Notes: generated by a model not told the origin, from the letters alone. 32,000 nt of DNA from Moraxella nasovis (GCF_022701215.1 NZ_CP089976.1:780001-812000); one strand, 5' to 3'. Positions 4,216-24,903 are shown, counted from the stretch's first letter. Numbers and translations are program-made.

Positions 4216-4364
4216 CCAAGCTTGACCAGCAGTCGGTGCAATACTTAAGTCAATCAACAAAAATAAGGAATTATTAAACACAAATATAAAGCAAACAATC
4301 ATAAGCCTTACCATGGACGGGACGTACAAGGTATGTAATTTCATCATGAACTAAGGAGAGAATC

Positions 4365-6056: not shown

Positions 6057-6074
6057 ATAAAATACATTAATATG

Positions 6075-6105
6075 ACGTCTCACCCAGTGGTGGGACGTTC
6101 GTTTG
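6075..6105 (+). terminator. Rho-independent terminator after the acyl-CoA synthetase gene
   Basis: ACGTCTCACC (6075-6084) pairs with GGTGGGACGT (6089-6098), giving a 10-bp stem with one G-U pair and a 4-nt loop, followed by TCGTTTG. Confidence 0.6.
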
Positions 6106-6215
6106 ATAAGTGCTTACTTACCATCGGTTAAATTAAAGCGCTTTTTTATCATAAGATGATTGACATAAAAACAGACATGTAGCCCAGTTAAACTTAGCCA
6201 AATGTCTATTTTATC

Positions 6216-6440
6216 CTAATTTTTAGCGATTAGATCAGCTGCTTTTTCGTATCGATTCATAAACCAGCCATGACTTGCCGCGATGGATTGTCTTGTAAAA
6301 ACATGAGTTGGAAATGCCGATAAAAACAGTGCAAGATTGGCGACGTCCTCTACTAGGGTAAACTCTTTATCCACCGATTAACCAACATAATGCTGATAAA
6401 AATAATAAGCAGCGGTTGTTTTATTAACTTGTACAAGCTG
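6216..6440 (-). pseudogene. Remnant of a 3-hydroxybutyrate dehydrogenase (SDR family) C-terminus
   Basis: Minus-strand translation of 6374-6216 gives [40 protein letters not shown]...stop, which resembles the C-terminal about 40 aa of BdhA-type SDRs. Upstream, a frameshifted IMLVN piece and in-frame stops appear. There is no N-terminal Rossmann part, so the gene is truncated and decayed. Confidence 0.5.
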
Positions 6441-6773
6441 TGCTACTACTCTTACAGTTACGCCTACAACAAATAATTTACTCAGGTGATTTTATTTGTA
6501 GATGCTTAGTTTTGCTTTTTTTTATGATTCTAGTATAACTAAGATTGTTTATCTAAGATGGCGTCAAAAATTTTTATAATTTTTTTATGATTTTTGATTT
6601 TGTAGATACTTAACTTACTGCTATACTTTATATTGCCAGTTAGCATAGCTGGGTCGATGGTCTAACCCTGCCTGATGTTAACCTCATAACCCCAAAATCG
6701 TCTGTTTTTATTGCCAATGACTAGGGTTATTTGCCGCAAGTCTTTTTGTGCTTATTTTGTATTAAGGATATTC

Positions 6774-8189
6774 ATGTATTCAAATTTTAACAAAACAAAA
6801 AACGTTAATATCACTACCCCAACAGCGATGATAATGGCGACTGCCATGATTGCGGTGATGGCAGTCGTTATGATTGCCTTAGGCTGGATACCACATTTGG
6901 CACTGCTTTTGGTCATTTGTGGCGTGTTTTTGTTTGGTTATTTTAAAGGCTTAGACTTTAGTACCATGCAAGATTATATGGCAAAAGGGGTGATGAGTGG
7001 CTTTGGGGCGATTTATCTGTTCTTTTTTATTGGTCTGATGGTATCGGCATTGATGATGTCTGGGGCGATACCTACCTTGATGTATTATGGCTTTGAGCTG
7101 ATTTCTCCACAATATTTTTATGTGTCAGCGTTTATTTTAACATCTATTATTGGCGTGGCGATTGGCAGTAGTTTGACCACCTGTGCCACCATTGGCGTGG
7201 CGTTTATGGGTATGGCAGGGGCGTTTGATGCCAATACAGCGATTGTGGCAGGGGCGGTGGTATCGGGGGCGTTTTTTGGCGATAAAATGTCGCCCTTATC
7301 CGACACTTGCACTATTTCAGCATCGGTGGCAGGCATTGATTTATTTGAGCATATTGGCAACATGACCTACACCACCGTACCTGCTTGGATTTTAACGGTA
7401 GTATTGTTATGGTTTCTTCAGGGGCAAAATGCAGGGGCAGATTTAAGTCAAGTTGGGCAACTAAAAGAGCAGTTGGTTGCCACAGGCTTGGTGCAAGGCT
7501 ATGCGTTATTGCCTTTTGCGTTGCTAGTCGGTTTGATTTTATTTAAAGTTAATGCGATATACGCCATTATCATGACTATTATCAGTGCGGTGATGATCAC
7601 CTTTTTTCACAGCTCTCCCACACTATCTGAAATTGGCAGTTATTTTTTCCAAGGCTACAAACCTGCCGAAAACTTAGAGCTTGGAGCGATTGGTAGTTTA
7701 ATTTCTCGGGGTGGGTTAAACAGTATGTTTTTTACCCAAACCATCGTGATTTTGGCATTAAGCTTGGGCGGATTGTTGCATAATTTGGGTATTTTGCCAG
7801 CGTTGCTTAACAGCATTAAACATAAATTGATCAATGCAGGGCAAGTTACTTTGGCAGTAGCTTTAACATCACTTGGGGTGAATGTACTTATCGGTGAACA
7901 GTATTTGAGTATTTTGTTGGCAGCAGAGAGTTTTAAAACCGAATACACCCGCTTAAACTTACACCCCAAAAATTTGGCTCGTACCATTGAAGACGCAGGG
8001 ACGGTTATCAACCCACTGGTGCCTTGGAGTGTGTGTGGCGTGTTTATTAGCGAGCAGTTAGGCGTATCGGTGCTGGCTTATTTGCCTTATGCATTTTTTT
8101 GTTATTTATGTTTATTTTTAACCATTATTTTTGGTTTTACAGGCTTTACCATTACCAAATTGCCTAGTAATACCACCAATCAAGCCTAA
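6774..8189 (+). CDS. NhaC-family Na+/H+ antiporter-type membrane transporter
   Basis: Polytopic membrane protein with an NhaC-like core (MSGAIPTLMYYGFELISPQYFY...GSSLTTCATIGVAFMGMA). I start it at the ATG at 6774 (MYSNFNK), which has an AAGGA site 6 nt upstream, rather than at the TTG-initiated track start at 6711. Confidence 0.8.
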   Translation: MYSNFNKTKNVNITTPTAMIMATAMIAVMAVVMIALGWIPHLALLLVICGVFLFGYFKGLDFSTMQDYMAKGVMSGFGAIYLFFFIGLMVSALMMSGAIPTLMYYGFELISPQYFYVSAFILTSIIGVAIGSSLTTCATIGVAFMGMAGAFDANTAIVAGAVVSGAFFGDKMSPLSDTCTISASVAGIDLFEHIGNMTYTTVPAWILTVVLLWFLQGQNAGADLSQVGQLKEQLVATGLVQGYALLPFALLVGLILFKVNAIYAIIMTIISAVMITFFHSSPTLSEIGSYFFQGYKPAENLELGAIGSLISRGGLNSMFFTQTIVILALSLGGLLHNLGILPALLNSIKHKLINAGQVTLAVALTSLGVNVLIGEQYLSILLAAESFKTEYTRLNLHPKNLARTIEDAGTVINPLVPWSVCGVFISEQLGVSVLAYLPYAFFCYLCLFLTIIFGFTGFTITKLPSNTTNQA

Positions 8190-8198
8190 CAGGACTAG

Positions 8199-8855
8199 AT
8201 GATGAAATTATATTCTTATTTTCTTAGCTCAGCAGCGTTTCGGGTACGCATTGCGTTGGCGTTAAAAAAAGTGGACTATGACACTGTGCCTGTGCATTTG
8301 ATGAAAAATGGGGGTGAACACAAAAGCCCTGATTATCAAACCATCAATCCGCAACAGCTTGTGCCAGCCCTTGATGATAATGGCTTTGTACTGACTCAAT
8401 CGCTTGCCATTATAGAATATCTAGAAGATAGATACCCACAAATACCGCTTTTACCAGACGATGTGCAAGAGCGCGCTTGGGTGCGTGCGGCGGCGTATTT
8501 GGTGGCGTGCGATATTCATCCGCTTGACAACTTACGAGTGCTAAATTACCTAAAAAACGACTTAAATGTGAATGATGAACAAAAACAAACTTGGTATGCT
8601 CATTGGATTACACAAGGATTTGGCGCCTTAGAGACACTTATGCTAGAGCGTTATCCAGGCGATACACCACGCAAATTTTGTTATGGCGATACGCCTACCA
8701 TGGCAGATTGTTGTTTAATTCCGCAGGTGTATAACGCCAAACGCTTTAATGTAGATTTGTCAAAATTTCCAAACATTGTCGCTATTTATGAGCATTGTAT
8801 AAGCTTGCCTGCTTTTATACAGGCATCTCCTAAGGCTTGGGCGGATTTAGTATAA
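8199..8855 (+). CDS. maiA: Maleylacetoacetate isomerase (zeta-class glutathione S-transferase)
   Basis: 218 aa. The N-terminus MKLYSYFLSSAAFRVRIALALKKVDYD...GGEHKSPDYQTINPQQLVPAL is the characteristic MaiA/GSTZ pattern. Confidence 0.85.
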   Translation: MMKLYSYFLSSAAFRVRIALALKKVDYDTVPVHLMKNGGEHKSPDYQTINPQQLVPALDDNGFVLTQSLAIIEYLEDRYPQIPLLPDDVQERAWVRAAAYLVACDIHPLDNLRVLNYLKNDLNVNDEQKQTWYAHWITQGFGALETLMLERYPGDTPRKFCYGDTPTMADCCLIPQVYNAKRFNVDLSKFPNIVAIYEHCISLPAFIQASPKAWADLV

Positions 8856-8914
8856 TTGCTTTAAAAAAGCCTAAATCGTTAAATTTAGACTTTTTATTGT
8901 TGATTTGCAAATAA

Positions 8915-9550
8915 TTACACCGCAATTACTAAATCCACAGGCGTTTTTTGCTTAACTTCATCAACGGTTACGCCATCGGCAAGCTCAACCAATGTCAAGC
9001 CTTTATCAGTAACATCATACACCCCAAGCTCGGTAATGATACGGTTGACAACGCCTTTGCCTGTCAGTGGCAAAGTGCATTCGGGTAAAATTTTTGGCTC
9101 GCCGTGTTTATTCACCTGCTCCATCAGCACAATGACACGTTGCACGCCTGCTACCAAATCCATCGCACCGCCCATGCCTTTGACCAGTTTTCCTGGTATC
9201 ATCCAATTTGCCAAATCGCCCGTCTTGGACACTTCCATCGCCCCCAAAATCGCAAGGTTGATGTGTCCACCACGAATCATCGCAAATGATGTGGAACTAC
9301 TAAAAAAACTCGCCCCTGTTTTGGCAGTAACAGTTTGCTTACCAGCGTTAATCAAGTCAGCATCTACTTCATTAACACTTGGATACTCGCCAATGCCAAG
9401 CAGTCCGTTCTCAGACTGTAGCCACACATCGACGCTATCAGGGATATGGTTTGCCACCAAGGTTGGCAGCCCAATACCTAAATTGACATAAAACCCATCT
9501 TGTAATTCTTGACTGGCACGCTGTGCCATCTCATCTCTGCTCCAAGCCAT
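8915..9550 (-). CDS. scoB: 3-oxoacid (succinyl-CoA:acetoacetate) CoA-transferase, subunit B
   Basis: 211 aa. It carries [17 protein letters not shown] and the catalytic-Glu motif LQSENGLLG, and sits directly downstream of subunit A. Confidence 0.92.
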
Positions 9551-9563
9551 GATTATTCCTTAG

Positions 9564-10262
9564 TTATTTGGTGGTGATATTTTCAATGCGTTTTTCGGGG
9601 GCAGTGTTTAGCACAATGCGTTGCACAAACACGCCTGACAAATGCACATGGTCAGGATCAATCTCGCCGATTTCCACAATCTCTTCTACCTCAGCAATGG
9701 TGATTTTTCCTGCCATCGCACACTCTGGGTTAAAGTTGCGTGCGGTTTTGTTAAACACCAAATTGCCCGCTTTATCCGCCTTTTGGGCTTTGATAAGTGC
9801 CACATCAGCAGTCAAAGACTTCTCCAAAAGGTACTCTTGACCATCAAACTTACGAACTTCTTTGCCATCGGCAATTTGGGTGCCGACCCCTGTTTTGGTA
9901 TAAAACGCAGGAATGCCTGCCCCACCTGCACGCAGTTTTTCGGCAAGCGTGCCTTGTGGCGTGAGTATCACTTCTAATTCACCTGATAAAAATTGGCGTT
10001 CAAACTCTTTGTTTTCGCCTACATAAGACGCTATCATAGTGCTAATTTGCTTAGTTTTTAATAACAAACCTAAGCCAAAATCATCAACGCCTGCATTATT
10101 GCTAATACAAGTTAGGTTTTTGACGCCTGTATCGCATAACGCTTCAATGAGTTTTTCTGGAATACCGCACAGACCAAAACCACCCACAGCAAGGGTTTGA
10201 GAGTCCGCCACCACATCTGCCAAAGCCTCTTTGGCGGTGGGGTAAATTTTTGAAATTGCCAT
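9564..10262 (-). CDS. scoA: 3-oxoacid CoA-transferase, subunit A
   Basis: 232 aa with VGGFGLCGIPEKLIEAL and a typical subunit A N-terminus. It lies 13 nt upstream of subunit B. Confidence 0.92.
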   Translation of the reverse strand: MAISKIYPTAKEALADVVADSQTLAVGGFGLCGIPEKLIEALCDTGVKNLTCISNNAGVDDFGLGLLLKTKQISTMIASYVGENKEFERQFLSGELEVILTPQGTLAEKLRAGGAGIPAFYTKTGVGTQIADGKEVRKFDGQEYLLEKSLTADVALIKAQKADKAGNLVFNKTARNFNPECAMAGKITIAEVEEIVEIGEIDPDHVHLSGVFVQRIVLNTAPEKRIENITTK

Positions 10263-10536
10263 AATTTTTTTTCCTTAAAAATGATGATTTTTTTTAACAA
10301 ATAGAGAAACAAATACAGCGTGTTGATGTTTCGTCTTTAGTAATAAAAACAAGACAAATGCAGTTAATCTAAGCAAAACCTTGCAAAAAATACTCAATCG
10401 CATTCACAAGGGTTTGGCACAAATAACAAGACTTGTCCGTTTTTATCCAAAAGTGACAGCTCTACTTATTTGTTAAAATACTAACATATCCTATTTATAT
10501 AAGCATTTGGGTGATGAAGTATTAGCATATCCCAAA

Positions 10537-11712
10537 TTAAGCCAACTCAATCGCCATTGCCACACCTTCGCCACCGCCGATACATAGGCTTGCCACACCT
10601 TTTGTGCCGCCTGTGCGTTTTAGGGCGTGAATGAGCGTTACTAAAATGCGAGTGCCAGAACAGCCAAGCGGGTGTCCTAAGGCACACGCACCGCCGTTGA
10701 TATTGACTTTGGCAGGGTCAAGCCCAAAGGCATCTATCGCTCCAAGCGTTACCATAGCAAAGGCTTCGTTGATTTCCCACACATCTACCTCATCTGTCGT
10801 CCAGCCTGCTTTATCCAGCACTTTTTTAATCGCACCGATGGGGGCTGTGGTGAATTCACTGGGGGCTTGTGAGTGGGTGGCGTAGGCTTTAATGCTAGCA
10901 AGTACAGGCAAGTCGTGGCTGTCTGCATACGCCTTTGAGCTTAGAATAACCGCTGCTGCTCCATCAGAAATAGAGCTTGCGTTGGCAGCAGTGATTGTAC
11001 CATCTTTAGCAAAGGCAGGTTTTAGCGTGGGGATTTTATCCACTTTGGCACGGCTTGGCGACTCGTCTGTATCAATAACTTGCTCACCTTTTTTATCCTT
11101 GATGATAACAGGGCAAATCTCATCTTTAAAATAGCCCTTAGTAATCGCTTCGTTGGCTTTATTTAGCGATGAAATGGCAAATTCGTCCATACTTTGGCGA
11201 GTGTAGCCCTTTTTATCTGCCATTTCTTGGGCATATACACCCATAAGTTTACCACTTTCGGCATCTTGCAGTCCGTCAAAGAACATCAAATCCATAACTT
11301 CGCCATGCCCCATTCGCATACCGCCACGAGCCTTAGGCAGAGCATAGGGGGCATTGGTCATGCTGTCCATACCGCCTGCGATGATGACACTGGCTTGTTT
11401 AGCTTTGATGGCATTGGCAGCTTGCATGACACTCACCAAGCCTGAACCACAGACTTTATTGACCGTAATCGCACCGACCTTTTCATCAAGCCCAGCTTTA
11501 ATCATGGCTTGGCGAGCAGGGGCTTGTCCAAGTCCTGCCGACAGCACACAGCCCATGACCACCTCATCAATGTCATGGGTATCAATACCCGCTTGCTGAC
11601 ACGCCCCTTTAATGGCGGTTGCTCCCAAATCACTGGCGGACAGACCAGCAAACACCCCATTAAATGCCCCCATAGGCGTACGAGTGGCAGACAAAACAAC
11701 GATGTCGTTCAT
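10537..11712 (-). CDS. atoB: Acetyl-CoA C-acetyltransferase (thiolase II)
   Basis: Thiolase motifs VNKVCGSGL (active Cys), NEAFA, GGACALGHPLGCSG and CIGGGEG. I start it at the ATG at 11712 (MNDIVVLSATRTPMG), which has an AGGGAA ribosome-binding site. The 22-aa extension in the track looks spurious. Confidence 0.92.
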   Translation of the reverse strand: MNDIVVLSATRTPMGAFNGVFAGLSASDLGATAIKGACQQAGIDTHDIDEVVMGCVLSAGLGQAPARQAMIKAGLDEKVGAITVNKVCGSGLVSVMQAANAIKAKQASVIIAGGMDSMTNAPYALPKARGGMRMGHGEVMDLMFFDGLQDAESGKLMGVYAQEMADKKGYTRQSMDEFAISSLNKANEAITKGYFKDEICPVIIKDKKGEQVIDTDESPSRAKVDKIPTLKPAFAKDGTITAANASSISDGAAAVILSSKAYADSHDLPVLASIKAYATHSQAPSEFTTAPIGAIKKVLDKAGWTTDEVDVWEINEAFAMVTLGAIDAFGLDPAKVNINGGACALGHPLGCSGTRILVTLIHALKRTGGTKGVASLCIGGGEGVAMAIELA

Positions 11713-15847: not shown

Positions 15848-15869
15848 CAATACCAACAATAATACCAAC
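15848..15869. repeat. att direct repeat at the TerL-proximal end
   Basis: CAATACCAACAATAATACCAAC, identical to 24882-24903. It is itself built from two AATACCAAC sub-repeats. Confidence 0.8.
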
Positions 15870-15957
15870 AAAATAAAAAGTAACCCCCTATTTATCACAA
15901 ACAAGGGGCTTTTTTTACCATTCCAAACAGACAAAAAACAATCATTTCAAACAACAA

Positions 15958-17328
15958 TCACGTCCACCACCTTACTTCCAATTTACTGATACAAGGTTCA
16001 CGTTTAAGCACCCCATATCTTAATGCGTCTGCTGCGTGGTCTGCTCCATCGCTTGCCATGTCTTCAGGTCTTTTGTCATCTCTACACAATGTTGGTAAAG
16101 TTTCCCACAAGTAACGGCATTGATTAGAAATATACAAGCCAGCTCTATCAGGTTTGCCAGCGTCAGCCATCAACCGCCTTAAAATATTCCAGCCAGTAAT
16201 GCGGTCTGCTTTCTTAGCTGGTTCAAAATGCACGCTTTGCATTCTAAATTCATCGGCAATACTACCTGTTGCGTGTCCAGCTTTGGCAAAAATTGCGTCA
16301 TCTGCAACGCCCTTAGCTCTAATATTCCAATAATCGCACATTTTTTTAATTTCTTCTGCTAGTGTTGGCACTGTCCAGCCTAAACCAACATTTAAATTAC
16401 CGTGCTTATGCGTTACCAATTCATCAACCACCACCAGCGAACCTTTGGGATAATAACGCCCATTGATTGTATCGCCATAACTTTCAGCGATTACCAGCGT
16501 TGCACTAGGGGCAGATGAACCAAAATCATGGGCTAACCAATAACGCCAACCGTCAGGGATTTCCGTCCATTCTTCAATCATCATGCGTTTTTCATCAAGT
16601 ACATTGGCAAAGTATGCCCCACGGTTTACCGCCCAATTACCATCAATCCACGCTTTTAATAATTCAGGGTCATCAGGACAAGACGCTGTTAATTGTTCGT
16701 TATACTGTTCACGGTCTATAAAGTGGTTATCTGCAAATGTACTGGGGGCGTGTACCCATGTTCTTTTGCTTTTTGGCTCGTGGAATGGTTGCCATGCTTC
16801 AAAACCATTAAATACAAATCTTTTGGCTATCCAATGATGGCCCACGCCTGCAGGGTTTGCACTAATAATCATTCTGATGGGTGTCTTTGTATCACCACGC
16901 AAATTTGAACGCATTAAATCCAATAATCTAGGTTCAGAAAATTGCCCAGCTTCATCAACAACCAGTAAATTAAATGAACGCCCTTGATACTTTGCATAAT
17001 CTGATTGACTTTCTAGCTGTCCAAGCTCCAAATAACCACCATTAGGAAAACGCCAAACGTGTTCAGTTTGATTGTATCTTGCACTTTGTCCGTAAACCAT
17101 GCCAAACACTTCACGGCATATCAATTCAAAATCTGCAAGCCCTTTGTAAGTACGCCGTATAAATAAACACCGTGCTTTTTCTTTGTATAACTCAATATGT
17201 CGTAAAATCAATAAAGCGATACAGTAAGATTTACCACCGCCACGCCCACCAAGTAAGGCAATATCTACACCGTCAGGAATTGCCATTACTTTTTCTTGAA
17301 AACTGTTTAATGGAATATTTTGCATCAT
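15958..17328 (-). CDS. terL: Terminase large subunit
   Basis: 456 aa. It has Walker A LLGGRGGGKS and Walker B LLVVDEAGQF, plus a C-terminal RNase-H-like nuclease with WLAHDFGSS and DGADHAADALRYG. Its start overlaps the TerS stop by 4 nt (ATGA). Confidence 0.9.
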   Translation of the reverse strand: MMQNIPLNSFQEKVMAIPDGVDIALLGGRGGGKSYCIALLILRHIELYKEKARCLFIRRTYKGLADFELICREVFGMVYGQSARYNQTEHVWRFPNGGYLELGQLESQSDYAKYQGRSFNLLVVDEAGQFSEPRLLDLMRSNLRGDTKTPIRMIISANPAGVGHHWIAKRFVFNGFEAWQPFHEPKSKRTWVHAPSTFADNHFIDREQYNEQLTASCPDDPELLKAWIDGNWAVNRGAYFANVLDEKRMMIEEWTEIPDGWRYWLAHDFGSSAPSATLVIAESYGDTINGRYYPKGSLVVVDELVTHKHGNLNVGLGWTVPTLAEEIKKMCDYWNIRAKGVADDAIFAKAGHATGSIADEFRMQSVHFEPAKKADRITGWNILRRLMADAGKPDRAGLYISNQCRYLWETLPTLCRDDKRPEDMASDGADHAADALRYGVLKREPCISKLEVRWWT

Positions 17329-17729
17329 TTATCCCCCTGACTAACCACCTTTAAATAATCGTCCATATTTTGGGCAGGTGCAGGTAAATTAAAAGTAATT
17401 GCAACCTTGTTGGCTTGGTCGGTTTGGTCGTATTCTTTATAGCCGTGCCTTGCTTTTAGTAGGAAAATCGCTGCGGTGATATTGCCTTTTTCCATCGCTT
17501 GCGTGTATAGCATATTATGCAAGTCTTGGCGTTCTTTTTCACGTCCAAGCTCTAAGGCTTGTTCTACTTCTGGAAATTTTTCACGCCATACATAAAATAA
17601 CGATTTTGATATATTACACGCTTTGGCAATATTAGGAATGGAATGCCCTTTAGCGGTCATTTGTTCAATCAGCTTAATATGCTGTGCTGTGGGCTGTTTT
17701 TTGTTGGCATTTAACCCTTTTTGTGCCAT
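17325..17729 (-). CDS. terS: Terminase small subunit (HTH type)
   Basis: 134 aa with an N-terminal HTH (GHSIPNIAKACNISKSLFYVWREKFPE), followed by the ELGREKERQDLHNMLYTQAMEKGNITAAIFLLKARHGYKE pattern typical of small terminases. It is translationally coupled to terL. Confidence 0.75.
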   Translation of the reverse strand: MAQKGLNANKKQPTAQHIKLIEQMTAKGHSIPNIAKACNISKSLFYVWREKFPEVEQALELGREKERQDLHNMLYTQAMEKGNITAAIFLLKARHGYKEYDQTDQANKVAITFNLPAPAQNMDDYLKVVSQGDK

Positions 17730-17740
17730 GTTTTTTCTCC

Positions 17741-17766
17741 AAAGAAAATAAGGGGCTTAGCCCCTT
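17741..17766 (-). terminator. Strong hairpin terminator between the capsid gene and terS
   Basis: AAGGGGC (17750-17756) pairs with GCCCCTT (17760-17766) around a 3-nt loop. On the minus-strand RNA it is followed by AUUUUCUUU, then GGAGA and the terS ATG. Confidence 0.7.
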
Positions 17767-17770
17767 ATTA

Positions 17771-18754
17771 TTATTTACTGATTAAAAATGCCAAAGGAAT
17801 GTTTTTTCGCTCTGTCATACGCTTCCAATGTTCTGCTTTGGCAAGCTCGCTAATGGTTGGGCTTTCGCCTTGTAACTCGCCCTCTACCCATGTATAACCT
17901 AATGGGTGAACCGCTAGATTTAATCGTGAATGCAAAACACTCATACCGCCACCCATACCAGCACTATTGATTAGCTCCACGGCTGTGGCAGGTGTGTGCA
18001 ATGGCTGTGAAATACCATAACTAAATGCACCAGCCCCCAAAAGCACGCTTAAATAATTGCCATCATCGTCAGGCGTTAAACCATCATCTACGATAACCAT
18101 TAAGCCCCTAAACGTTTGAAATGGTCTGCCTTGGCTAGGTGTTACGGTTTGGATTTGGTCGCTTTTGAGTGCGTCAAAATAGATTTTACTGTGCATGGCA
18201 ATCGCAACCACGCTATTAAATGCGTCTCCAAGCGTGGACGCTGTATCTATAACCGCTTCTGATGTAAATTTATTGGTTTTTGTGGCGGTTGTAATATCGT
18301 GTATCATATCACCACCATTTGCTTTGTTGCTTGCCACAATGCCACGGATAGACGCTATTAAGCGTTTTTGTAGCTCGTTATCCCAATAGGCTGTTACACG
18401 CTCTTGGATAGCCTTTAAAGGGTCAGCTCCTGCAATTTCAGCAGATAAGCCCATGCTAGACCATGAATTATGCAAAAATGCTTTTCTGATATTTTGCTTA
18501 TAAGCACTTACCTTTTTTGGTGTGGAATGTTCATCAGGATTGTCAGAAATAATGTCAGCTTCTGCACCGATTGCAATGTCTTTCCAGTAAGGGACGTTAA
18601 AAGACGTTGAACCAGCTTTTAAGTATTTGGAAATTTGGTCGTTTTTAACCAAAAGCCCACTTTCAATCAGCTTGGTTTTAGTTGCGGTTTTGTCTAATAG
18701 ATAATCGGTAAATTGTGATGGCTCGATAATGTCCGTTAATTGAGTAGTTGCCAT
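17771..18754 (-). CDS. Major capsid protein (HK97-fold family, by sequence pattern)
   Basis: 327 aa from the ATG at 18754, which has a GGAGA site 8 nt upstream. The N-terminus MATTQLTDIIEPSQFTDYLL...VPYWKD...SDNPDEHSTPKKV...DPLKAIQERVTAYWDNELQKRL matches the pattern I recognise from a widespread phage major-capsid family. It sits between a scaffold-position gene and the terminase genes. Confidence 0.78.
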   Translation of the reverse strand: MATTQLTDIIEPSQFTDYLLDKTATKTKLIESGLLVKNDQISKYLKAGSTSFNVPYWKDIAIGAEADIISDNPDEHSTPKKVSAYKQNIRKAFLHNSWSSMGLSAEIAGADPLKAIQERVTAYWDNELQKRLIASIRGIVASNKANGGDMIHDITTATKTNKFTSEAVIDTASTLGDAFNSVVAIAMHSKIYFDALKSDQIQTVTPSQGRPFQTFRGLMVIVDDGLTPDDDGNYLSVLLGAGAFSYGISQPLHTPATAVELINSAGMGGGMSVLHSRLNLAVHPLGYTWVEGELQGESPTISELAKAEHWKRMTERKNIPLAFLISK

Positions 18755-18802
18755 ATAATATTCTCCAATAGCAAAGTTACTGTTAATTGGTGAATATTTT
18801 GC

Positions 18803-18831
18803 ATTACAAAATAGGGGTGTACATTGTACAA
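18803..18831 (-). promoter_or_regulatory. Candidate sigma70-type promoter for the capsid/terminase genes
   Basis: The minus strand reads TTGTAC, a 17-nt spacer, then TGTAAT, about 45 nt upstream of the capsid ATG. It lies just after two terminator-like hairpins and overlaps a TGTACAATGTACA repeat. Confidence 0.3.
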
Positions 18832-18852
18832 AAAAAAGATAGGGCATAGCCC

Positions 18853-18886
18853 AAAAAGAAAAGGTGTCAGCATTGCCAACACCCTT
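18853..18886 (-). terminator. Terminator-like hairpin after orf300
   Basis: AAGGTGT (18861-18867) pairs with ACACCCTT (18879-18886) with one bulged base and an 11-nt loop. On the minus-strand RNA it is followed by UUCUUUUU. Confidence 0.45.
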
Positions 18887-18895
18887 AATTTTACT

Positions 18896-19798
18896 TTATT
18901 CTAAGCCAAAATGCAATCTATCATCATCTGATAACGTTTGGTTTGGCAAACGGTCAGCAGTCTCTAAAAGTGCAGGTATTTGGGCATTATAATAATCTAC
19001 TGCTTTTTGCTTTTTTTCCAGTTCGCTTTTGAAGAACTTAACCAGCTTGGTAACTTGTTCTTTTACTTTTGGTCTGCCAATAAATACGCCGTCTTTATAC
19101 TCACAAAGCTCTTTAACTTCCCAGTGTAAATCAATTGCGTCCGAACCTGTGCCACTTCCCCTTACTTCAGTATAACAATGGCTTGGAAAACGTTCTCGTA
19201 TTTCGTATAACTCACGTCTATCTACCAGCACATTATCAGCATTGACAAAACAATAACCAGTTTTAAAAACGGTTTTATAAGTTTCTTTTTTGCTATCCTT
19301 GCAGATTTCTCTTTGTTTTAATGGTTCGTTGTCAGCATAAATAACTTTATAACCTCGTTTACTTAATTCATATTCCATATAATCCCTACTACTTGGCAAA
19401 ACGTCAATCACATTATAAAAAACCGCTTCTAAGTATTCAGTTTTTTTGTATTCTTCAAAATCTGATTTAACTTGTTGCAATTCGTCATTTAATTTTTGCA
19501 ATTCTGATATTTTAGATTGACTTAACTCTAAATCTTGTTTGCTTGCTTTTAATTTACCCAAAAGCTCTCTGTTTTTGGCGGTTAATTTTGTTACTTCATC
19601 AGACTTGTCTAATAAGTTTTCATCAGATTTTTTAATAAATCTTTCATCATTTTGGTTTTTATTTTCTGATAAATTTTCATCATTTTTGGATAAACTTTCA
19701 TCTAAATTTTGGGTTAAATTTTCGTTTTGTTTAAGCAAATTTTCATCATTTTGCACGTCTAAAACGTCATCATTTTGGGTTAAATTTTGTTCGGTCAT
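18896..19798 (-). CDS. Hypothetical protein; acidic repeat N-terminus plus coiled coil, in the scaffold position upstream of the capsid gene
   Basis: 300 aa. Residues 1-70 are degenerate (D/N)ENL(L/S/T) repeats. Residues about 70-120 are heptad-like (LLGKLKASKQDLELSQSKISELQKLNDELQQVKSDFEEYKK). I recognise no catalytic motif. The scaffold call rests only on position and composition. Confidence 0.45.
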   Translation of the reverse strand: MTEQNLTQNDDVLDVQNDENLLKQNENLTQNLDESLSKNDENLSENKNQNDERFIKKSDENLLDKSDEVTKLTAKNRELLGKLKASKQDLELSQSKISELQKLNDELQQVKSDFEEYKKTEYLEAVFYNVIDVLPSSRDYMEYELSKRGYKVIYADNEPLKQREICKDSKKETYKTVFKTGYCFVNADNVLVDRRELYEIRERFPSHCYTEVRGSGTGSDAIDLHWEVKELCEYKDGVFIGRPKVKEQVTKLVKFFKSELEKKQKAVDYYNAQIPALLETADRLPNQTLSDDDRLHFGLE

Positions 19799-19847: not shown

Positions 19848-20028
19848 GGTATCCCTTTTTTGTTTGTCATCTTGGGCATCTTGGTCATCTTGTAGTATTT
19901 TCAAGGGTTGTAGCGGTTTTTTGGTTGGGCATCTTAAAATCAAGATGACCATGGTAAAAACTCTGTAAGCCTTGATTTTACTTTAAGTTGCCCAAGATGA
20001 CCAAGATGACCATATAATAAGGGATACC
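19848..20028. repeat. Iteron-rich, globally palindromic intergenic region; candidate replication origin of the island
   Basis: Three tandem 9-mers of (T/G)CATCTTG(G/T) lie at 19867-19893. An inverted pair GCATCTT/AAGATGAC lies at 19929-19949. Two tandem CCAAGATGA copies lie at 19992-20009. The outer inverted repeat is GGTATCCCTT (19848-19857) and AAGGGATACC (20019-20028). The region lies immediately 3' of the rep helicase gene. Confidence 0.6.
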
Positions 20029-20050: not shown

Positions 20051-21433
20051 TTAGTTTTTTAAATCAATAAAGATACTTGGCTCGTGGTTTTTATAAGCAG
20101 GTTTTAAGCTCCAATACCAGCCATCTTTTTTCTTTTCAGGGCGGTTACAAACCTTTTCCCTTGCACTTCTAATCTGCTTAATAGTAAACCCTGCTTCTTT
20201 GGCTTCTTGTTCAATTTCCGATACTTTCATATCGTCCACATCTAGAAGTATTTCTAATAAAAATTGTTTGGCATAATCTGCACTTGACATCTCCTTTTCT
20301 TCTTCGGTTTGTTCGGTTTGGTTTAGTAATTCTTTGGTTGTACCTTGCTTAAAATTACCCCATTTTATGCGTGTGGTATCTATATCATCAAGTTGGCAAG
20401 GCTCTATAAAATACTCAAAACCACCATCAATCTTTGCGATATTGGTTTTGGTCTTGGTAAAGATATTTGGCTTGTCAGGCTCTTGTGCTGGTGCTGTTAC
20501 CCATGCCATGCGTGCTAAGGCGGTAAATGCCTGAGAACCGATAACTCGCTCCGTTGGGTCTTGCCCTTTTGTACCTTTGGCAAAATGGGTGATACCAACA
20601 ATGGCAAAATCTAACTCATTTGCCATTTTTACCAATATATCCAAAGACGCTCGCACTTCGTTGGCATGGTGCATATTACCGCTTACCACCGCCAAAATAG
20701 GGTCAATCATCACAAGGCGAACATCACGCCCTTGTAATGCTTCTGCAAGCCGTGGCAAGTCTTCTGATGGGTCAAAATACCGCTCTTCTCCCTTTTCCAT
20801 CACGCTATCTACAAAATGCACTTTGGATAGGTCAGCTCCCATTGCTTTTAAGCGTGGCGTTAGTGTGTCGTGAATGTCATCTTCGGTAGAATAAATCACG
20901 CATTCGCCCACATTGTCGCAAATACTCCCATCAGGGAATGCACCGCCTGTTGTGATGGCTCGTACTAGGTCTAATGCAATGGTGGTTTTACCACTACCGC
21001 CAGCCCCTGCAAAGGTGGTTAATTTGCCAAGTGGTAACCAGCCACGCCATAGCCATTTTATCGGCATAGGCTTCACATCAGAAGCACAAATTAAATTAAG
21101 CTCACCGCCTTGCTTAAATAAGGCGTTCAAGCTTTGCAAAGTGGGATTATTTGGCATTTTTACCAAAAACTTCTTATCCCCACCTTTTAATAATTCGCTT
21201 TGGGTGATAATTCTGATATTTTTTCGCTCTTCTATGGCGTTATCCACCAAGGTGTTAATATCATCATAAAAAACCACGTCAACACCGATTTTCATTAAGG
21301 TATCATGCACATCAATATCATCGGTTAAGATGATATTGTTGCTTGTTACTCGTCCTTTATAAAAACCGTTTGGATTTATTTTGAATTTTGGGTCTATGCT
21401 ATCAATTATCATCACAAGGCTCCCACTCTTCAA
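20051..21433 (-). CDS. Replication initiator/helicase, RecA-like AAA_25 (RepA/DnaB-like) NTPase
   Basis: 460 aa. It carries the pattern IKWLWRGWLPLGKLTTFAGAGGSGKTTIALDL (Walker A), Walker B VRLVMIDPI, and GITHFAKG. This pattern is typical of the replication proteins of P4/PICI-like islands. I see no primase motif. Confidence 0.78.
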   Translation of the reverse strand: MKSGSLVMIIDSIDPKFKINPNGFYKGRVTSNNIILTDDIDVHDTLMKIGVDVVFYDDINTLVDNAIEERKNIRIITQSELLKGGDKKFLVKMPNNPTLQSLNALFKQGGELNLICASDVKPMPIKWLWRGWLPLGKLTTFAGAGGSGKTTIALDLVRAITTGGAFPDGSICDNVGECVIYSTEDDIHDTLTPRLKAMGADLSKVHFVDSVMEKGEERYFDPSEDLPRLAEALQGRDVRLVMIDPILAVVSGNMHHANEVRASLDILVKMANELDFAIVGITHFAKGTKGQDPTERVIGSQAFTALARMAWVTAPAQEPDKPNIFTKTKTNIAKIDGGFEYFIEPCQLDDIDTTRIKWGNFKQGTTKELLNQTEQTEEEKEMSSADYAKQFLLEILLDVDDMKVSEIEQEAKEAGFTIKQIRSAREKVCNRPEKKKDGWYWSLKPAYKNHEPSIFIDLKN

Positions 21434-21587
21434 AGATGGTTACTTTCTTTTGGGTTAGGATTTCAGCATTTGGACAATTACTCTTAATTTGTCTGATATG
21501 CTTAATTGCCTGCTCTTTTGATGAAAATAACTGCAAAGACATAAATCCTTTGGTAAGACAACTCACCACATACTCATAATGGGTCAT
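21402..21587 (-). CDS. Hypothetical protein (61 aa)
   Basis: Its ATG overlaps the stop of the upstream 80-aa ORF by 4 nt, and it overlaps the rep start. No motif recognised. Confidence 0.5.
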   Translation of the reverse strand: MTHYEYVVSCLTKGFMSLQLFSSKEQAIKHIRQIKSNCPNAEILTQKKVTIFEEWEPCDDN

Positions 21588-21826
21588 GCTTCATCTCCCA
21601 AACTATCTAACAAATCATGCGTTTTTTGGCTGTCTTTGTAGGTTTGTTCCACCTTTTCCCAAAGTAGAAAAATTAGGCTGTTAACTCTCTCTTGTTCAAA
21701 ATTTGGGTTGCAAGTGTACTCATACAATAAGCCCATGATATTGTTAATGTCTTCAAGCGAACTCATAACGTCTTCAGCATGGGCTAGGGTGTTGCATTGC
21801 TTGGCGGTTAGGTTTTGATATTTCAT
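21584..21826 (-). CDS. Hypothetical protein (80 aa, predicted helical)
   Basis: It shows a 4-nt ATGA overlap with the upstream ORF and with the downstream ORF. No motif recognised. Confidence 0.55.
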   Translation of the reverse strand: MKYQNLTAKQCNTLAHAEDVMSSLEDINNIMGLLYEYTCNPNFEQERVNSLIFLLWEKVEQTYKDSQKTHDLLDSLGDEA

Positions 21827-22407
21827 TTTGCACCCCCTTTAAATACGCCTAGAATGCGTTTTAAGGCACTTTTAGGCTTAGGTGGTGCATAGGTAGCACA
21901 AGGGGCGTTATTAAGCGATTTTAGGGCGTGTATGGCGTTATAAATGGCATTGGCACGCTCACAATAGCCGTTAAAGGGTTCTTGTGCGTGTAGCTCGTTA
22001 TAGCGGTGGTATTCGTCTGATAGAACGGTTAGGGAATGATTTAAGATAGATTGGTTCATGGCGAACGCTCCTAGATATTTAGTTGCTTTTACCACCCAAC
22101 AAATGGGGTGGCAGGTCTCAACTACCGTATCTAGACGGCTGGGGCTATTTCCTTTCGGTCTTGTATTTGCCCCTATCAACCCGCCATAAACTGATTTTTC
22201 AGAATATGGGGTGTTTTCGCCTGTGGTGGGCGAAAAAATAGCCAAAGTATGACGGTTTGGCTTTACCGCTAGATATTTAGTAGTGGGCGTATTATTGCCT
22301 AAAATATCATTTTTTGAAAGTGAAATAATTTCATCAAAAACCTGTTTTAATTTAAAATAATTCATGTTATACTTACTCACATTAAAAACTTCTCTTAAGT
22401 TTGTCAT
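21823..22407 (-). CDS. Hypothetical protein (194 aa from the ATG at 22407; an alternative internal start at 22059 would give 78 aa)
   Basis: An open frame of 199 codons, although the track start is a TTG. The ATG at 22407 follows AAAGGGGG. An in-frame ATG at 22059 has a perfect AGGAG site with an 8-nt spacer. The N-terminal half is low-complexity (rich in T, P, G, N, S). Confidence 0.5.
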   Translation of the reverse strand: MTNLREVFNVSKYNMNYFKLKQVFDEIISLSKNDILGNNTPTTKYLAVKPNRHTLAIFSPTTGENTPYSEKSVYGGLIGANTRPKGNSPSRLDTVVETCHPICWVVKATKYLGAFAMNQSILNHSLTVLSDEYHRYNELHAQEPFNGYCERANAIYNAIHALKSLNNAPCATYAPPKPKSALKRILGVFKGGAK

Positions 22408-22444
22408 AAACCCCCTTTGCAAAGATTGGTAAAGGGGTGTTTTT

Positions 22445-22633
22445 TTATTTGCCCTGTGCTTCTATCCATGCGTGAATGTCGCTGTTACGCCATGCGGTCA
22501 TAGTGCTGGATAATTTGACTGGTTCAGGGAATTTGCCTTCCCTTACCCATTTCCATACGGTGGATTTACCAATGGGTAAAAAAGGTAAGATTTGATTAAT
22601 ACGGCTCATGCCGTCTTTGGGTAGGTTTTGCAT
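22445..22633 (-). CDS. alpA: AlpA-family transcriptional regulator/excisionase-like HTH protein
   Basis: 62 aa. ILPFLPIGKSTVWKWVREGKFPEPVKLSSTMTAWRNSDIHAWIEA matches the AlpA/Phage_AlpA pattern (STIYR..K.G.FP.PVKLG.R.V.W...DI..WI). A GGAG site lies 8 nt upstream. Confidence 0.85.
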   Translation of the reverse strand: MQNLPKDGMSRINQILPFLPIGKSTVWKWVREGKFPEPVKLSSTMTAWRNSDIHAWIEAQGK

Positions 22634-22759: not shown

Positions 22760-23476
22760 TTATTTGTCCTTTTGATTGTAATAATACTTGTCGTTTAGAT
22801 ATTCAAGCCAATTTGCAACAGTTTCTTTGGCTATACCTACTTTATGCTTATGGGTTAAGTTTAGCAATATATCATTTAAATTGCCTTTGGTTGTGCCGTC
22901 TAGTGTGTAACCGTGTTCAGTCATCAAAGCATATAATAATTTTGATATGGTGCTTTTGCTGTTGGGGGTTAATCCTTGTTCACCAACTTGTAATAGCTCG
23001 TTTTGTAGCTTTTCAACCTGTTTATTTAAATCATTAATAATTTTATCTTGTTTGGCAATTTTGTTTGATGGCTCATCATGCTTTTGTTGCGTCAGCATTA
23101 AGATAACTTCTCGCAATGCCTTGTTTTCTGCTTCTAGCTCGTTTATCTTTCGTTTTAGTTTTTTGTGCTTTTTATCCGTCTGTGTGGGCGTTACATCAAT
23201 GACAATGGGCTTTCTTTTTTGATCTTGTAGCGTGTGTGATATTTTTTTCAAGTACGTGGGATGTCTTTGGTCTTGTAGCGTGTGTGATACTATGCTTGGT
23301 GGCATATTCGCCATTAGCTTTTGCACCGCCTGTTGTACCTCTATTGGTGGTCCAAATACCTCTTGAAGTTGCTGTATAACTTCATCAATCAATTTGGCAT
23401 TTTGCCTAAGGGCAGATTGTAAATTCGTTTCTTGATAATCTGCTATTGTCTTATATAGTGATGGTGGAATTTTCAT
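22760..23476 (-). CDS. Hypothetical coiled-coil protein with a possible C-terminal DNA-binding tail
   Basis: 238 aa, starting 16 nt after the int stop with an AAGG ribosome-binding site. It has a central heptad region (KKLKRKINELEAENKALREVILML...INDLNKQVEKLQNELLQV) and a duplicated SHTLQDQ segment. The C-terminal tail STISKLLYALMTEHGY...GIAKETVANWLEYL resembles an HTH. Confidence 0.6.
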   Translation of the reverse strand: MKIPPSLYKTIADYQETNLQSALRQNAKLIDEVIQQLQEVFGPPIEVQQAVQKLMANMPPSIVSHTLQDQRHPTYLKKISHTLQDQKRKPIVIDVTPTQTDKKHKKLKRKINELEAENKALREVILMLTQQKHDEPSNKIAKQDKIINDLNKQVEKLQNELLQVGEQGLTPNSKSTISKLLYALMTEHGYTLDGTTKGNLNDILLNLTHKHKVGIAKETVANWLEYLNDKYYYNQKDK

Positions 23477-23492
23477 AAACTTACCTTAAAAA

Positions 23493-24830
23493 TTAGCCCG
23501 CCAAAACTTCTAACCGCTCCATGCGGTGAATGTCTAGCTCGTCTTGAATTTCCTGCTCTTTGTATCTTAGGCTTTGTAAAAAGCTAATAAACGCCATTTC
23601 ATTGCCGTCAGCGGTCGATTTGGCTTTGTAGGTGCTAAAATCCCCTTGCTTGACTTCATTTACAACATTTGCCCAGTCATTCACCATCTTTATTCGTGCT
23701 GGTAGCAGATTAGCGGAGTTATAGGCTCTTACCGTCTTACTGCCTTGGACGTGGGATAATTGTAGCTCTATGGCTTGTGGGTTGTACTGCATTTCATAAA
23801 GTGAAGTACTAGCCAAGCCCCTAAATCCGTGTCCTGTCATTTTGTCTTTGTAGCCCATGCGTTTTAGGGCAACAGTAAAGGCATTGCTACTTAATACATT
23901 ATCCTTACCCCTATTGCTAAAAAACACAAATTCATCATGCAAATGCCATGATTTAATCGTCTGCAAAATCTCTATCACTGGTGGGGCTAGTGGCACAACA
24001 TGGGGTAAGCCGTTTTTCATGCGGTTAGCAGGGATATTCCATAAGCAATTATCAAAATCCAACTCTTGCCATGTCATGCCTAATAGCTCTTTGGTACGAA
24101 CGAACGTATAACACAACACATAAAAGCCAAATTTAGTTAATGGCTCACTATTTGAAGTATCAATGTCGGTTAGTAGCTTTGGTAGCTCGGTTATTTTTAT
24201 GCGTGGATAGTGCTTGCTTTTATGCTCTACTAATGATTTATGAATACCCCTTGGAATGGGGTTAGCAAGGTTTGGGGCAAGCCCTTTGATGATTGCATGG
24301 TCGTAAATTCTGCCAATATCAGCAATAACCTTGTGGGCGGTGGACGTTTTGCCTTGCAATGCCAAACGGTCATGCACCGCCATAATGTCAGGCAATCGCA
24401 CGGTGTAAATGTCTTTATCACCTAATAGGGGCTTGATATGGTTGTAATAAACCCCTTTATCTCTTTTAAAGGTATGCGGTTTTATGCGTGTTTGTTGGTG
24501 TTCAAACCATATTTGGGCAAAATGGTCAAAGTCTAGGTTGTCTTTTTGCTTGGCTTTTTGGCGTTCGTCTTTGGGGTTAATGCCTTGTGCTAGGTCATTT
24601 CTAATTTTGGTGGTTTCGTTTCGTGCGTCTGCTAAACTGATAAATGGATACAGTCCTAAACTGATATTTTGCTGTTTGCCTTGATAGCGATAAGCAACCA
24701 CCCATGATTTAACACCTGTGTATCTTACCCATAGTTGCAAGCCGTTCATGTCGCTGTACTTGTCAGGGCGTGTGGCGGTGCATTTATCGGACGGTTTTAA
24801 TTTCTTAATAGCGGTATCGGTTAAAGCCAT
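23493..24830 (-). CDS. int: Tyrosine recombinase/integrase, P4 (DUF4102-N-terminal) type
   Basis: The N-terminus MALTDTAIKKLKPSDK...NGLQLWVRYTGVKSWVVAYRYQGKQ is DUF4102-like. Catalytic residues are seen in TFVRTKEL (R), HGFRGLAST (HxxR) and LSHVQGSKTVRAYN (H...Y). I prefer the ATG at 24830 to the GTG at 24848. Confidence 0.92.
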   Translation of the reverse strand: MALTDTAIKKLKPSDKCTATRPDKYSDMNGLQLWVRYTGVKSWVVAYRYQGKQQNISLGLYPFISLADARNETTKIRNDLAQGINPKDERQKAKQKDNLDFDHFAQIWFEHQQTRIKPHTFKRDKGVYYNHIKPLLGDKDIYTVRLPDIMAVHDRLALQGKTSTAHKVIADIGRIYDHAIIKGLAPNLANPIPRGIHKSLVEHKSKHYPRIKITELPKLLTDIDTSNSEPLTKFGFYVLCYTFVRTKELLGMTWQELDFDNCLWNIPANRMKNGLPHVVPLAPPVIEILQTIKSWHLHDEFVFFSNRGKDNVLSSNAFTVALKRMGYKDKMTGHGFRGLASTSLYEMQYNPQAIELQLSHVQGSKTVRAYNSANLLPARIKMVNDWANVVNEVKQGDFSTYKAKSTADGNEMAFISFLQSLRYKEQEIQDELDIHRMERLEVLAG

Positions 24831-24881
24831 GAATGATAAGCCTTGCACGTGGATTTGTTGGTATTATAAGGAAATGAACTA

Positions 24882-24903
24882 CAATACCAACAATAATACC
24901 AAC
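24882..24903. repeat. att direct repeat at the integrase-proximal end
   Basis: CAATACCAACAATAATACCAAC, identical to 15848-15869. An inverted copy of the sub-repeat (TTGTTGGTATTAT, 24855-24867) lies just inside the element. Confidence 0.8.

Follow-up and report, generated by a model that had tools for sequence, protein, structure and literature searches.

A portal-less satellite family of Proteobacteria that encodes its own scaffold, capsid and terminase: a Moraxella nasovis island predicted to use the portal of a helper phage

Introduction

How can a mobile element that encodes its own capsid and its own packaging motor, and no portal, fill a head with DNA? This question is raised by a 32,000-nucleotide stretch of the Moraxella nasovis genome (GCF_022701215.1 NZ_CP089976.1:780001-812000; hereafter the window, with positions counted from its first letter), in which an integrated island of 9,034 bp carries genes for a scaffold, a major capsid protein (MCP) and the small (TerS) and large (TerL) subunits of a terminase. 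TerL must dock on a portal, and borrowing of a portal from a helper phage is what we infer from the gene content. Our answer, to which we assign a probability of roughly 0.55, is that the element is an integrative satellite resembling the phage-inducible chromosomal islands (PICIs), whose own shell and own terminase would be used on the portal of a helper.

Results

A minimal head and packaging kit

As judged by profile and family matches, the right arm of the island is a minimal SPP1-type head and packaging kit made up of a scaffold, an HK97-fold MCP, TerS and TerL:

15958-17328, minus strand: TerL, large terminase subunit, 456 aa (PF04466, PF03237, TIGR01547, phrog_2)
17325-17729, minus strand: TerS, small terminase subunit, 134 aa, with an N-terminal helix-turn-helix (phrog_309, E 2e-15)
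17771-18754, minus strand: MCP, SPP1 gp13-type HK97-fold, 327 aa (phrog_247, E 9e-86; PF20036, Gp13-like)
18896-19798, minus strand: orf300, divergent head scaffolding protein, assigned by homology to the protein upstream of the MCP in relatives

TerL matches Terminase_3 (E 5e-15) and phrog_2 (E 4e-39), and its sequence keeps the Walker A (GGRGGGKS) and Walker B (LLVVDEAG) motifs together with the nuclease aspartates. Identity within the satellite clade is 58-91%, and the TerL profile has no match in the PDB at E ≤ 1e-5. TerS adjoins TerL in all relatives, and terL is the final gene ahead of the attachment site (att). The MCP family profile finds the SPP1 coat protein in the PDB (4an5/6r3a, E ~1e-64). 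The MCP open frame runs on to 18847; the window protein is 100% identical to a 327-aa M. nasovis protein, and translation probably begins at the ATG at 18754.

The scaffold is divergent, orf300 itself having no direct match to a Pfam or PHROG family. With phmmer it matches (1e-5 to 1e-23) a conserved protein of 170-240 aa that lies immediately upstream of the MCP in every relative, and because these relatives in turn match phrog_206 (head scaffolding protein, E 2e-7 to 6e-39) we regard orf300 as the scaffold. Common to the family are a coiled coil near the N terminus, a linker rich in Gly and an FGL[RK] motif at the C terminus. orf300 has an Asn/Asp/Glu-rich N-terminal extension and the coiled coil; of the other two features it shows just the final FGL (…HFGLE) and a Gly stretch shortened to GSGTGS. 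SPP1 heads assemble by a scaffold-driven, protease-free route. The missing protease, which a preliminary description of this DNA had listed among the anomalies of the module, is therefore expected of a head of this type.

No portal in the element or across its relatives

Searches with Pfam, PHROGs and NCBIfam found no portal, protease, adaptor, tail or lysis gene in the window's element, and neither a head-tail adaptor or connector nor an HNH gene was matched there by Pfam or PHROGs. Serratia phage Eta, which has a related MCP and the order terS-terL-portal-gp7-...-scaffold-MCP-adaptors, provided seeds for jackhmmer (portal, gp7-like protein, adaptor, scaffold, MCP and TerL). These recovered a portal, gp7-like protein or adaptor in most phage-like contigs bearing a related MCP, and none of the three in any satellite locus. 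In a Pfam scan of 82 open reading frames (ORFs) of at least 280 aa from more than 50 satellite loci, Phage_portal was found in the positive control only; the scan otherwise returned replication and accessory families, the large ORFs of the satellites being AAA_25, Toprim, DUF3987, DUF3631, D5, RepB_primase, DUF927 and Rep_1. Some members, L007 and L010 among them, have no unassigned ORF longer than 190 aa at all. It is this family-level comparison that addresses the question of a hidden portal, the single-sequence AF2 models of orf238 and orf199 (mean pLDDT 43 and 38) being too poor for use. As no portal, neck or tail is encoded, the gate for DNA entry would have to come from a helper phage.

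The gene content and coordinates given in the preliminary description agree with our analysis, as do its scaffold-like orf300, its placing of terL as the last gene before att (a 22-bp repeat at 15848-15869) and its lack of portal, protease and head-completion genes, which the three databases and, for portal, gp7-like protein and adaptor, the Eta-seeded searches bear out. Its list of unassigned proteins (300, 238, 194, 80 and 61 aa) stands in that none matches a portal family, but two entries were wrongly placed on it: orf300 is the scaffold, and orf194, or orf199, dissolves into an sRNA-Xcc1 RNA and an ORF of about 78 aa.

A conserved and selected family

The scaffold-MCP-TerS-TerL set without a portal, placed after an integrase and a variable replication module, is found also in Luteimonas and in Pseudomonas mohnii. 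The same four genes, again portal-less, occur in M. bovoculi (at the tmRNA site), M. haemolytica and Acinetobacter rathckeae, and in about 25 IMG/VR contigs of at most 12 kb. Complete elements measure 9.0-9.9 kb, and two of the contigs are circular (9,581 and 9,792 bp); as evidence of mobilisation by a helper, such circular unit-length contigs are only suggestive. When clustered at 90% identity, the MCPs at least 49% identical to that of the window fall into more than 120 clusters, as do the TerLs at least 61% identical, and these close relatives are drawn from Gamma- and Betaproteobacteria and from metagenomes. A scan of the genome contigs with the MCP returned one locus only.

The family is well separated from sampled phages. 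Satellite MCPs are 50-55% identical across bacterial orders and at most 42% identical to any sampled phage MCP; for the window's own proteins, the nearest GenBank phage MCP is 37% and the nearest phage TerL about 30% identical, and megablast of the whole element against phage genomes returned nothing. Neighbour-joining trees place the satellite MCPs, and likewise the satellite TerLs, in monophyletic groups. The nearest phage TerLs (30-40% identical) adjoin Eta/Lucjan-type portals and gp7-like genes, which indicates that the ancestral phage module had a portal and that the satellites lost it.

Over all pairs, dN/dS of the MCP, TerL and TerS lies between 0.02 and 0.17, with dS saturated in the distant pairs (TerL 0.05-0.15; MCP 0.07-0.15). 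The close pair L090/L001 (dS ~0.13) gives 0.066 for the MCP and 0.022 for TerS, and the scaffold, at 0.2-0.7, is the fastest-evolving gene of the set. These values bear on the concern, voiced with the initial proposal, that the element is what remains of a decaying prophage, with capsid and terminase genes that no longer function. A terL nonsense codon in one relative from a metagenome-assembled genome (MAG), a split integrase in M. haemolytica and the lack of a known helper would all suit such a remnant. Against this, the att repeats, integrase, rep and origin of the element are intact, the same compact architecture recurs across orders with exchangeable replication modules, unit-length circular contigs exist, and dN/dS well below 1 indicates strong purifying selection on the head and packaging genes, the terL nonsense codon and the split integrase standing as exceptions. 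On dN/dS and architecture we consider decay largely refuted, and we give it next to no probability; these comparisons instead support a portal-less state that is conserved and selected across a large family.

The four genes also come apart. Their order is mostly scaffold-MCP-terS-terL, and a subgroup (L019, L020, L025) has terS-terL-scaffold-MCP instead. About half of a TerL-anchored sample (for example L093, L095, L097 and L108-L117) carries TerS-TerL with an integrase and neither MCP nor scaffold. Conversely, three circular elements, L009 (7,654 bp), L013 (7,841 bp) and L024 (7,896 bp), carry scaffold and MCP without TerL, and their MCPs nest within the satellite MCP clade.

Discussion

A proposed route to particles

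Since terminase-only and capsid-only variants both exist, a portal supplied by the helper is the simplest common interface between them, and the following route can be envisaged. A helper phage would trigger excision and replication of the satellite, after which scaffold and MCP could assemble a small shell around the helper's portal. By rough scaling from the known T=4 satellite capsids (11.6-18 kb), T=3 would be about the right size for a genome of 9-10 kb. TerS would then recognise satellite DNA, TerL would dock on the foreign portal and fill the head by a headful mechanism, and head-completion proteins, neck and tail from the helper would finish the particle, with lysis also left to the helper. 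The TerS-TerL-only sisters would use a whole helper procapsid, and the scaffold-MCP-only sisters the helper's terminase. In phages the portal nucleates MCP assembly, and MCP and portal co-evolve (10.1101/2025.02.15.638363).

More tentatively, and with somewhat less than even confidence, we suggest that these elements form a widespread and hitherto unrecognised proteobacterial class of satellites practising 'portal piracy', in which an all-satellite shell would be nucleated on a heterologous helper portal and filled through it by the satellite's own terminase. The class would come in modular grades, with TerS-TerL only, scaffold-MCP only or all four genes.

Evidence against use of a helper's portal, and rival explanations

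Several points weigh against our proposal. TerL-portal and MCP-portal pairs usually co-evolve, and a conserved TerL and MCP working on the portals of many hosts' phages would need either unusual promiscuity or a conserved helper lineage. Beside the relatives, phage genes were seen only in M. bovoculi (L087/L089), as part of a degraded prophage remnant, and Mcat7, the one Moraxella Mcat prophage whose head module was compared, has an unrelated HK97/protease-type head. Two members are damaged: the terL of the MAG relative L001 (7488-8876) has a TGA nonsense codon at a conserved Trp, and the integrase of the M. haemolytica element L090 (3907-5251) is split into 288 and 161 aa. Both lesions are occasional inactivation within an otherwise conserved family. 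Finally, gram-negative PICIs reportedly do not need their capsid genes for transfer, and at least one such PICI is packaged as phage-length concatemers (PMC10111431), so that the presence of an MCP does not prove an own capsid.

This last point leads to the main rival, which we consider unlikely, namely that MCP and scaffold co-assemble or compete with the helper capsid, changing its size or interfering with it, and that TerS and TerL redirect packaging into helper capsids, possibly of concatemers. By analogy, the element would then resemble SaPIbov5 with its Ccm, an MCP homologue that redirects assembly, or the gram-negative PICIs, whose capsid genes are common and not needed for transfer (PMC10111431). 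The TerS-TerL-only relatives fit as well, as they indicate that this terminase can work with procapsids made by a helper. The MCP is, however, always paired with a cognate scaffold, and both are kept even in the terminase-less variants. Moreover, the satellite MCPs are a single old clade, as the identities above attest, distant from those of phages, which argues that they do not track local helper capsid proteins, and the narrow 9-10 kb range fits a dedicated small head.

Alternatively, portal and neck could be supplied from within the chromosome by a resident partner, for instance a cryptic prophage or another island, and not by a helper that infects or is induced. In some M. bovoculi strains a relative at the tmRNA site is indeed arranged in tandem with genes for head-closure, neck, tail-terminator, major-tail, MuF-toxin and J-like proteins. 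These genes form a rearranged remnant in which the tape measure is in fragments, scaffold and J are fused and a portal is missing; no such cluster lies beside the element of the window or in the other genomes that we inspected, and we hold a resident partner to be improbable.

In L087 (5900-13867) and L089 the remnant directly follows the tmRNA-type attR of the satellite and has about 70% nucleotide identity to Moraxella phages Mcat1-30. Its genes specify proteins for head closure, neck, tail terminator and major tail, together with tail chaperones, fragments of a tape measure, a MuF-CdiA tRNase toxin and a fusion of a scaffold (phrog_206) with J. As a degraded, rearranged Mcat-like remnant without a portal, it was rejected as a helper.

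A further alternative dispenses with the portal altogether. The element might form portal-less, tailless particles, encapsulin-like or procapsid-like, or spread by some other route, with the terminase serving a function that needs no portal. Gut elements with MCP and scaffold and no portal or tail have indeed been proposed to be tailless entities (10.1101/2025.06.18.659913). Those gut elements lack terminases, whereas the TerS and TerL found here are complete and highly conserved, with ATPase and nuclease motifs intact, and the element has no lysis or entry functions. Every terminase known to us acts through a portal, and we give this alternative very little weight. Like decay and a resident partner, it is less likely than either modulation of the helper's capsid or use of the helper's portal.

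Relation to known satellites and phages

The element shares with the capsid-forming PICIs (cf-PICIs, e.g. EcCIEDL933) an integrative habit, an int-alpA-rep (pri/rep) left arm, its own MCP, TerS and TerL, and the absence of tail, holin and other lysis genes; in both, terS-terL stands next to att, behind the morphogenesis genes, and the head genes form old clades distinct from those of phages. The preliminary description had called the gene order non-canonical. It is in fact that of the proteobacterial cf-PICIs, in which morphogenesis genes are followed by hnh-terS-terL, and the sister subgroup noted above has terS-terL-scaffold-MCP. The cf-PICIs also encode a portal, protease, head-tail adaptor, connector and HNH (at least 9 of their 11 core components being required) and have a median length of 14 kb. 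The present element, at 9 kb, has an SPP1-type scaffold in place of the head maturation protease and lacks the portal, the neck with its head-tail adaptor or connector, and HNH.

With the gram-negative PICIs (EcCICFT073, PmCI172, HE-PICI 11capE) it has in common int, alpA and pri/rep, an origin downstream of rep, unidirectional genes and, as often in that group, a capsid-gene homologue. The assertion that classical PICIs encode redirection factors only was inaccurate, since 21 of the 29 reference gram-negative PICIs carry a capsid gene (PMC10111431). Judged by gene content, a classical PICI in the SatelliteFinder sense has int, alpA/stl, pri-rep, terS and a capsid or capsid-modification gene in a span of some 10-20 kb, and a specific att, and the element answers to this description; what it lacks is the reliance on a helper's TerL, since it encodes a full TerL of its own. 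Classical PICIs have no TerL and redirect the helper's terminase through Rpp or TerS, and terL is listed among the cf-PICI-specific core components that set the two groups apart. The capsid genes of classical PICIs are lambda-E-like and dispensable, with no cognate scaffold reported. In gene content, then, the element is intermediate between classical PICIs and cf-PICIs, as first proposed.

Among other satellites, SaPIbov5 Ccm, SaPI CpmB and SaPIpT1028 Rcm are likewise satellite-encoded MCP homologues or scaffold-like proteins that control capsid size; they remodel shells of helper MCP, in Firmicutes, in elements without TerL. P4 is also a small integrative satellite with an AlpA-type regulator, and members of the present family carry antisense RNA elements of its C4/CI type. 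P4, however, encodes Sid, Psu and Delta and uses the MCP, portal and terminase of P2, whereas Sid, Psu, Delta and the alpha primase have no Pfam or PHROG match in the window's element.

The head module of SPP1 comprises gp11 scaffold, gp13 MCP, gp6 portal, gp7 and the gp1/gp2 terminase, and has gram-negative relatives such as Serratia phage Eta. The element resembles it in its gp13-homologous MCP, in the gp11-like scaffold gene immediately upstream and in the scaffold-driven, protease-free assembly that these imply. Unlike SPP1 and Eta, it has no gp6-like portal (about 500 aa in these phages), gp7/MuF-like protein, adaptors or tail, and without portal, neck, tail and lysis genes it is not an autonomous tailed phage (Caudoviricetes).

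Further classes were considered and set aside. The gut 'mini HK97' entities (Aguilar et al. preprint) are temperate, about 8.9 kb long and encode MCP and scaffold without portal or tail, but they have no terminase. The Streptomyces satellites MiniFlayer and MulchRoom encode portal and adaptor, VEIMEs have no MCP, and Charybdis elements are unrelated. Archaeal SRCEs carry an MCP and/or a packaging ATPase without a full morphogenetic module; being parasites of spindle-shaped viruses, in a different realm, they offer an analogy only.

A 2024 review lists P4-like elements, PICI, cfPICI, PLE, PICMI, VEIME, Tycheposon and Streptomyces satellites, none with this gene set. We found no published description of this architecture in the searchable full-text literature, which omits much subscription literature. 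Portal-less satellites with capsid and terminase apparently constitute a large, undescribed family.

Implications

Current satellite groups either remodel or redirect helper parts (P4, PICI, PLE, PICMI) or steal only tails (cf-PICI). If our proposal is correct, a family that supplies shell and motor but no portal fills the gap between them, and its particles would be chimeras of a kind for which no example has been documented. It would also make testable the notions that a portal must co-evolve with MCP and TerL, that the scaffold recruits the portal and that MCP-scaffold geometry sets capsid size. Annotations of 'PICI' or 'incomplete prophage' in genomes of Moraxella, Acinetobacter, Pseudomonas and Xanthomonadales probably conceal such elements, and a head and packaging kit of four genes would be an attractive minimal system for engineered DNA delivery.

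Boundaries and left arm of the element

The island lies between two copies of an exact 22-bp direct repeat, CAATACCAACAATAATACCAAC, with ordinary host genes on both sides, and the M. haemolytica relative L090 is bounded by the same att core. All its genes are on the minus strand, in the order integrase, orf238, AlpA, the 'orf199' region, orf80, orf61, helicase, orf300, MCP, TerS and TerL. From these matches, the left arm (int, AlpA, a small regulatory RNA, helicase and an iteron origin) is predicted to serve excision, control and replication. Together with the hairpins of the right arm, the remaining features are:

15848-15869: att direct repeat CAATACCAACAATAATACCAAC, TerL-proximal end, exact 22-bp repeat with a spacing of 9,034 bp
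15882-15910, minus strand: terminator-like hairpin after terL
17747-17769: bidirectional hairpin between MCP and terS
18860-18886, minus strand: hairpin between the scaffold and MCP genes
19864-20011: putative origin, three direct GGTCATCTTG iterons and three inverted AAGATGNCC copies, read from the sequence
20051-21433, minus strand: replication helicase AAA_25, 460 aa (PF13481, E 1e-32; primase/helicase PHROGs)
21402-21587, minus strand: orf61, no significant family match
21584-21826, minus strand: orf80, no significant family match
21823-22059, minus strand: ORF of about 78 aa with its own AGGAG ribosome-binding site, the C-terminal part of 'orf199' (nucleotide alignment with Moraxella relatives)
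22102-22185, minus strand: sRNA-Xcc1-family small RNA (Rfam RF02221, 55.3 bits against a gathering score of 53, E 1.8e-7)
22445-22633, minus strand: AlpA-family regulator or excisionase, 62 aa (PF05930, E 1e-10)
22760-23476, minus strand: orf238, helical coiled-coil accessory protein, no family match
23493-24848, minus strand: tyrosine integrase, 451 aa (NCBIfam PRK09692, E 2e-48)
24882-24903: att direct repeat, int-proximal end, second copy of the 22-bp repeat CAATACCAACAATAATACCAAC

Relatives of the element carry homologous integrases. The scaffold, MCP and terL genes each have a hairpin 3' of them, and PADLOC finds no defence system in the element. The iteron cluster, which sits in a 252-bp spacer 3' of the helicase (rep) gene and before the scaffold gene, is probably the replication origin of the satellite, a position that agrees with the PICI convention of an origin downstream of pri/rep (PMC10111431).

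The sRNA-Xcc1 match is positioned between alpA and rep, within the mechanical ORF 21823-22422, and is probably a C4-like regulatory or immunity RNA. Three family members (L005, L007 and L014) carry a C4 antisense RNA, c4-a1b1 targets and isrK upstream of rep in the regulatory region, which suggests that the family has an RNA-based control module of the P1/P4 style. When the 'orf199' region was aligned with Moraxella relatives at the nucleotide level, its indels were not multiples of three and a separate AGGAG and ATG preceded the ORF of about 78 aa. With this ORF and the sRNA-Xcc1 RNA inside it, 'orf194/199' is an artefact rather than one protein.

For orf238, Pfam, PHROGs and NCBIfam returned nothing; its AF2 model, of low confidence, is all-helical, and family members show no sequence conservation in the gene that occupies this place. 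Within orf238, at 23218-23289, the peptide ISHTLQDQ occurs twice, owing to a 24-bp tandem-like repeat whose copies are 48 bp apart.

Variant members of the family

A representative of the elements that carry only the terminase is L093 from Noviherbaspirillum humi (4323-11368), which has int, alpA, a primase-helicase and TerS-TerL of the same clade without MCP or scaffold. Such 'whole-terminase-only' satellites seem to be undescribed too. Among the circular scaffold-MCP elements, L009 and L013 encode a serine recombinase/resolvase (L024 has an ORF of the same length, outside the scan), L013 adds a Rep_1 gene and L009 has a weakly TerS-like ORF of 155 aa.

In L098 (6401-8371) and L112 (5007-9137) an ORF with a TMP_2 match, that is, tail tape-measure-like, lies just upstream of terS and may be either a satellite gene or part of a flanking prophage. 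A subgroup of TerS-TerL-only IMG/VR contigs (L100-L106; for example L102, 9962-11350) has two conserved in-frame TAG codons in terL, aligned with Gln47 and Lys349 of the consensus, and in L106 several in-frame TAGs occur in a gene upstream as well. The L100-L106 contigs carry no gene for a suppressor tRNA. When TAG is read as sense, full-length ORFs ending in TGA result, which may reflect amber recoding supplied by helper or host.

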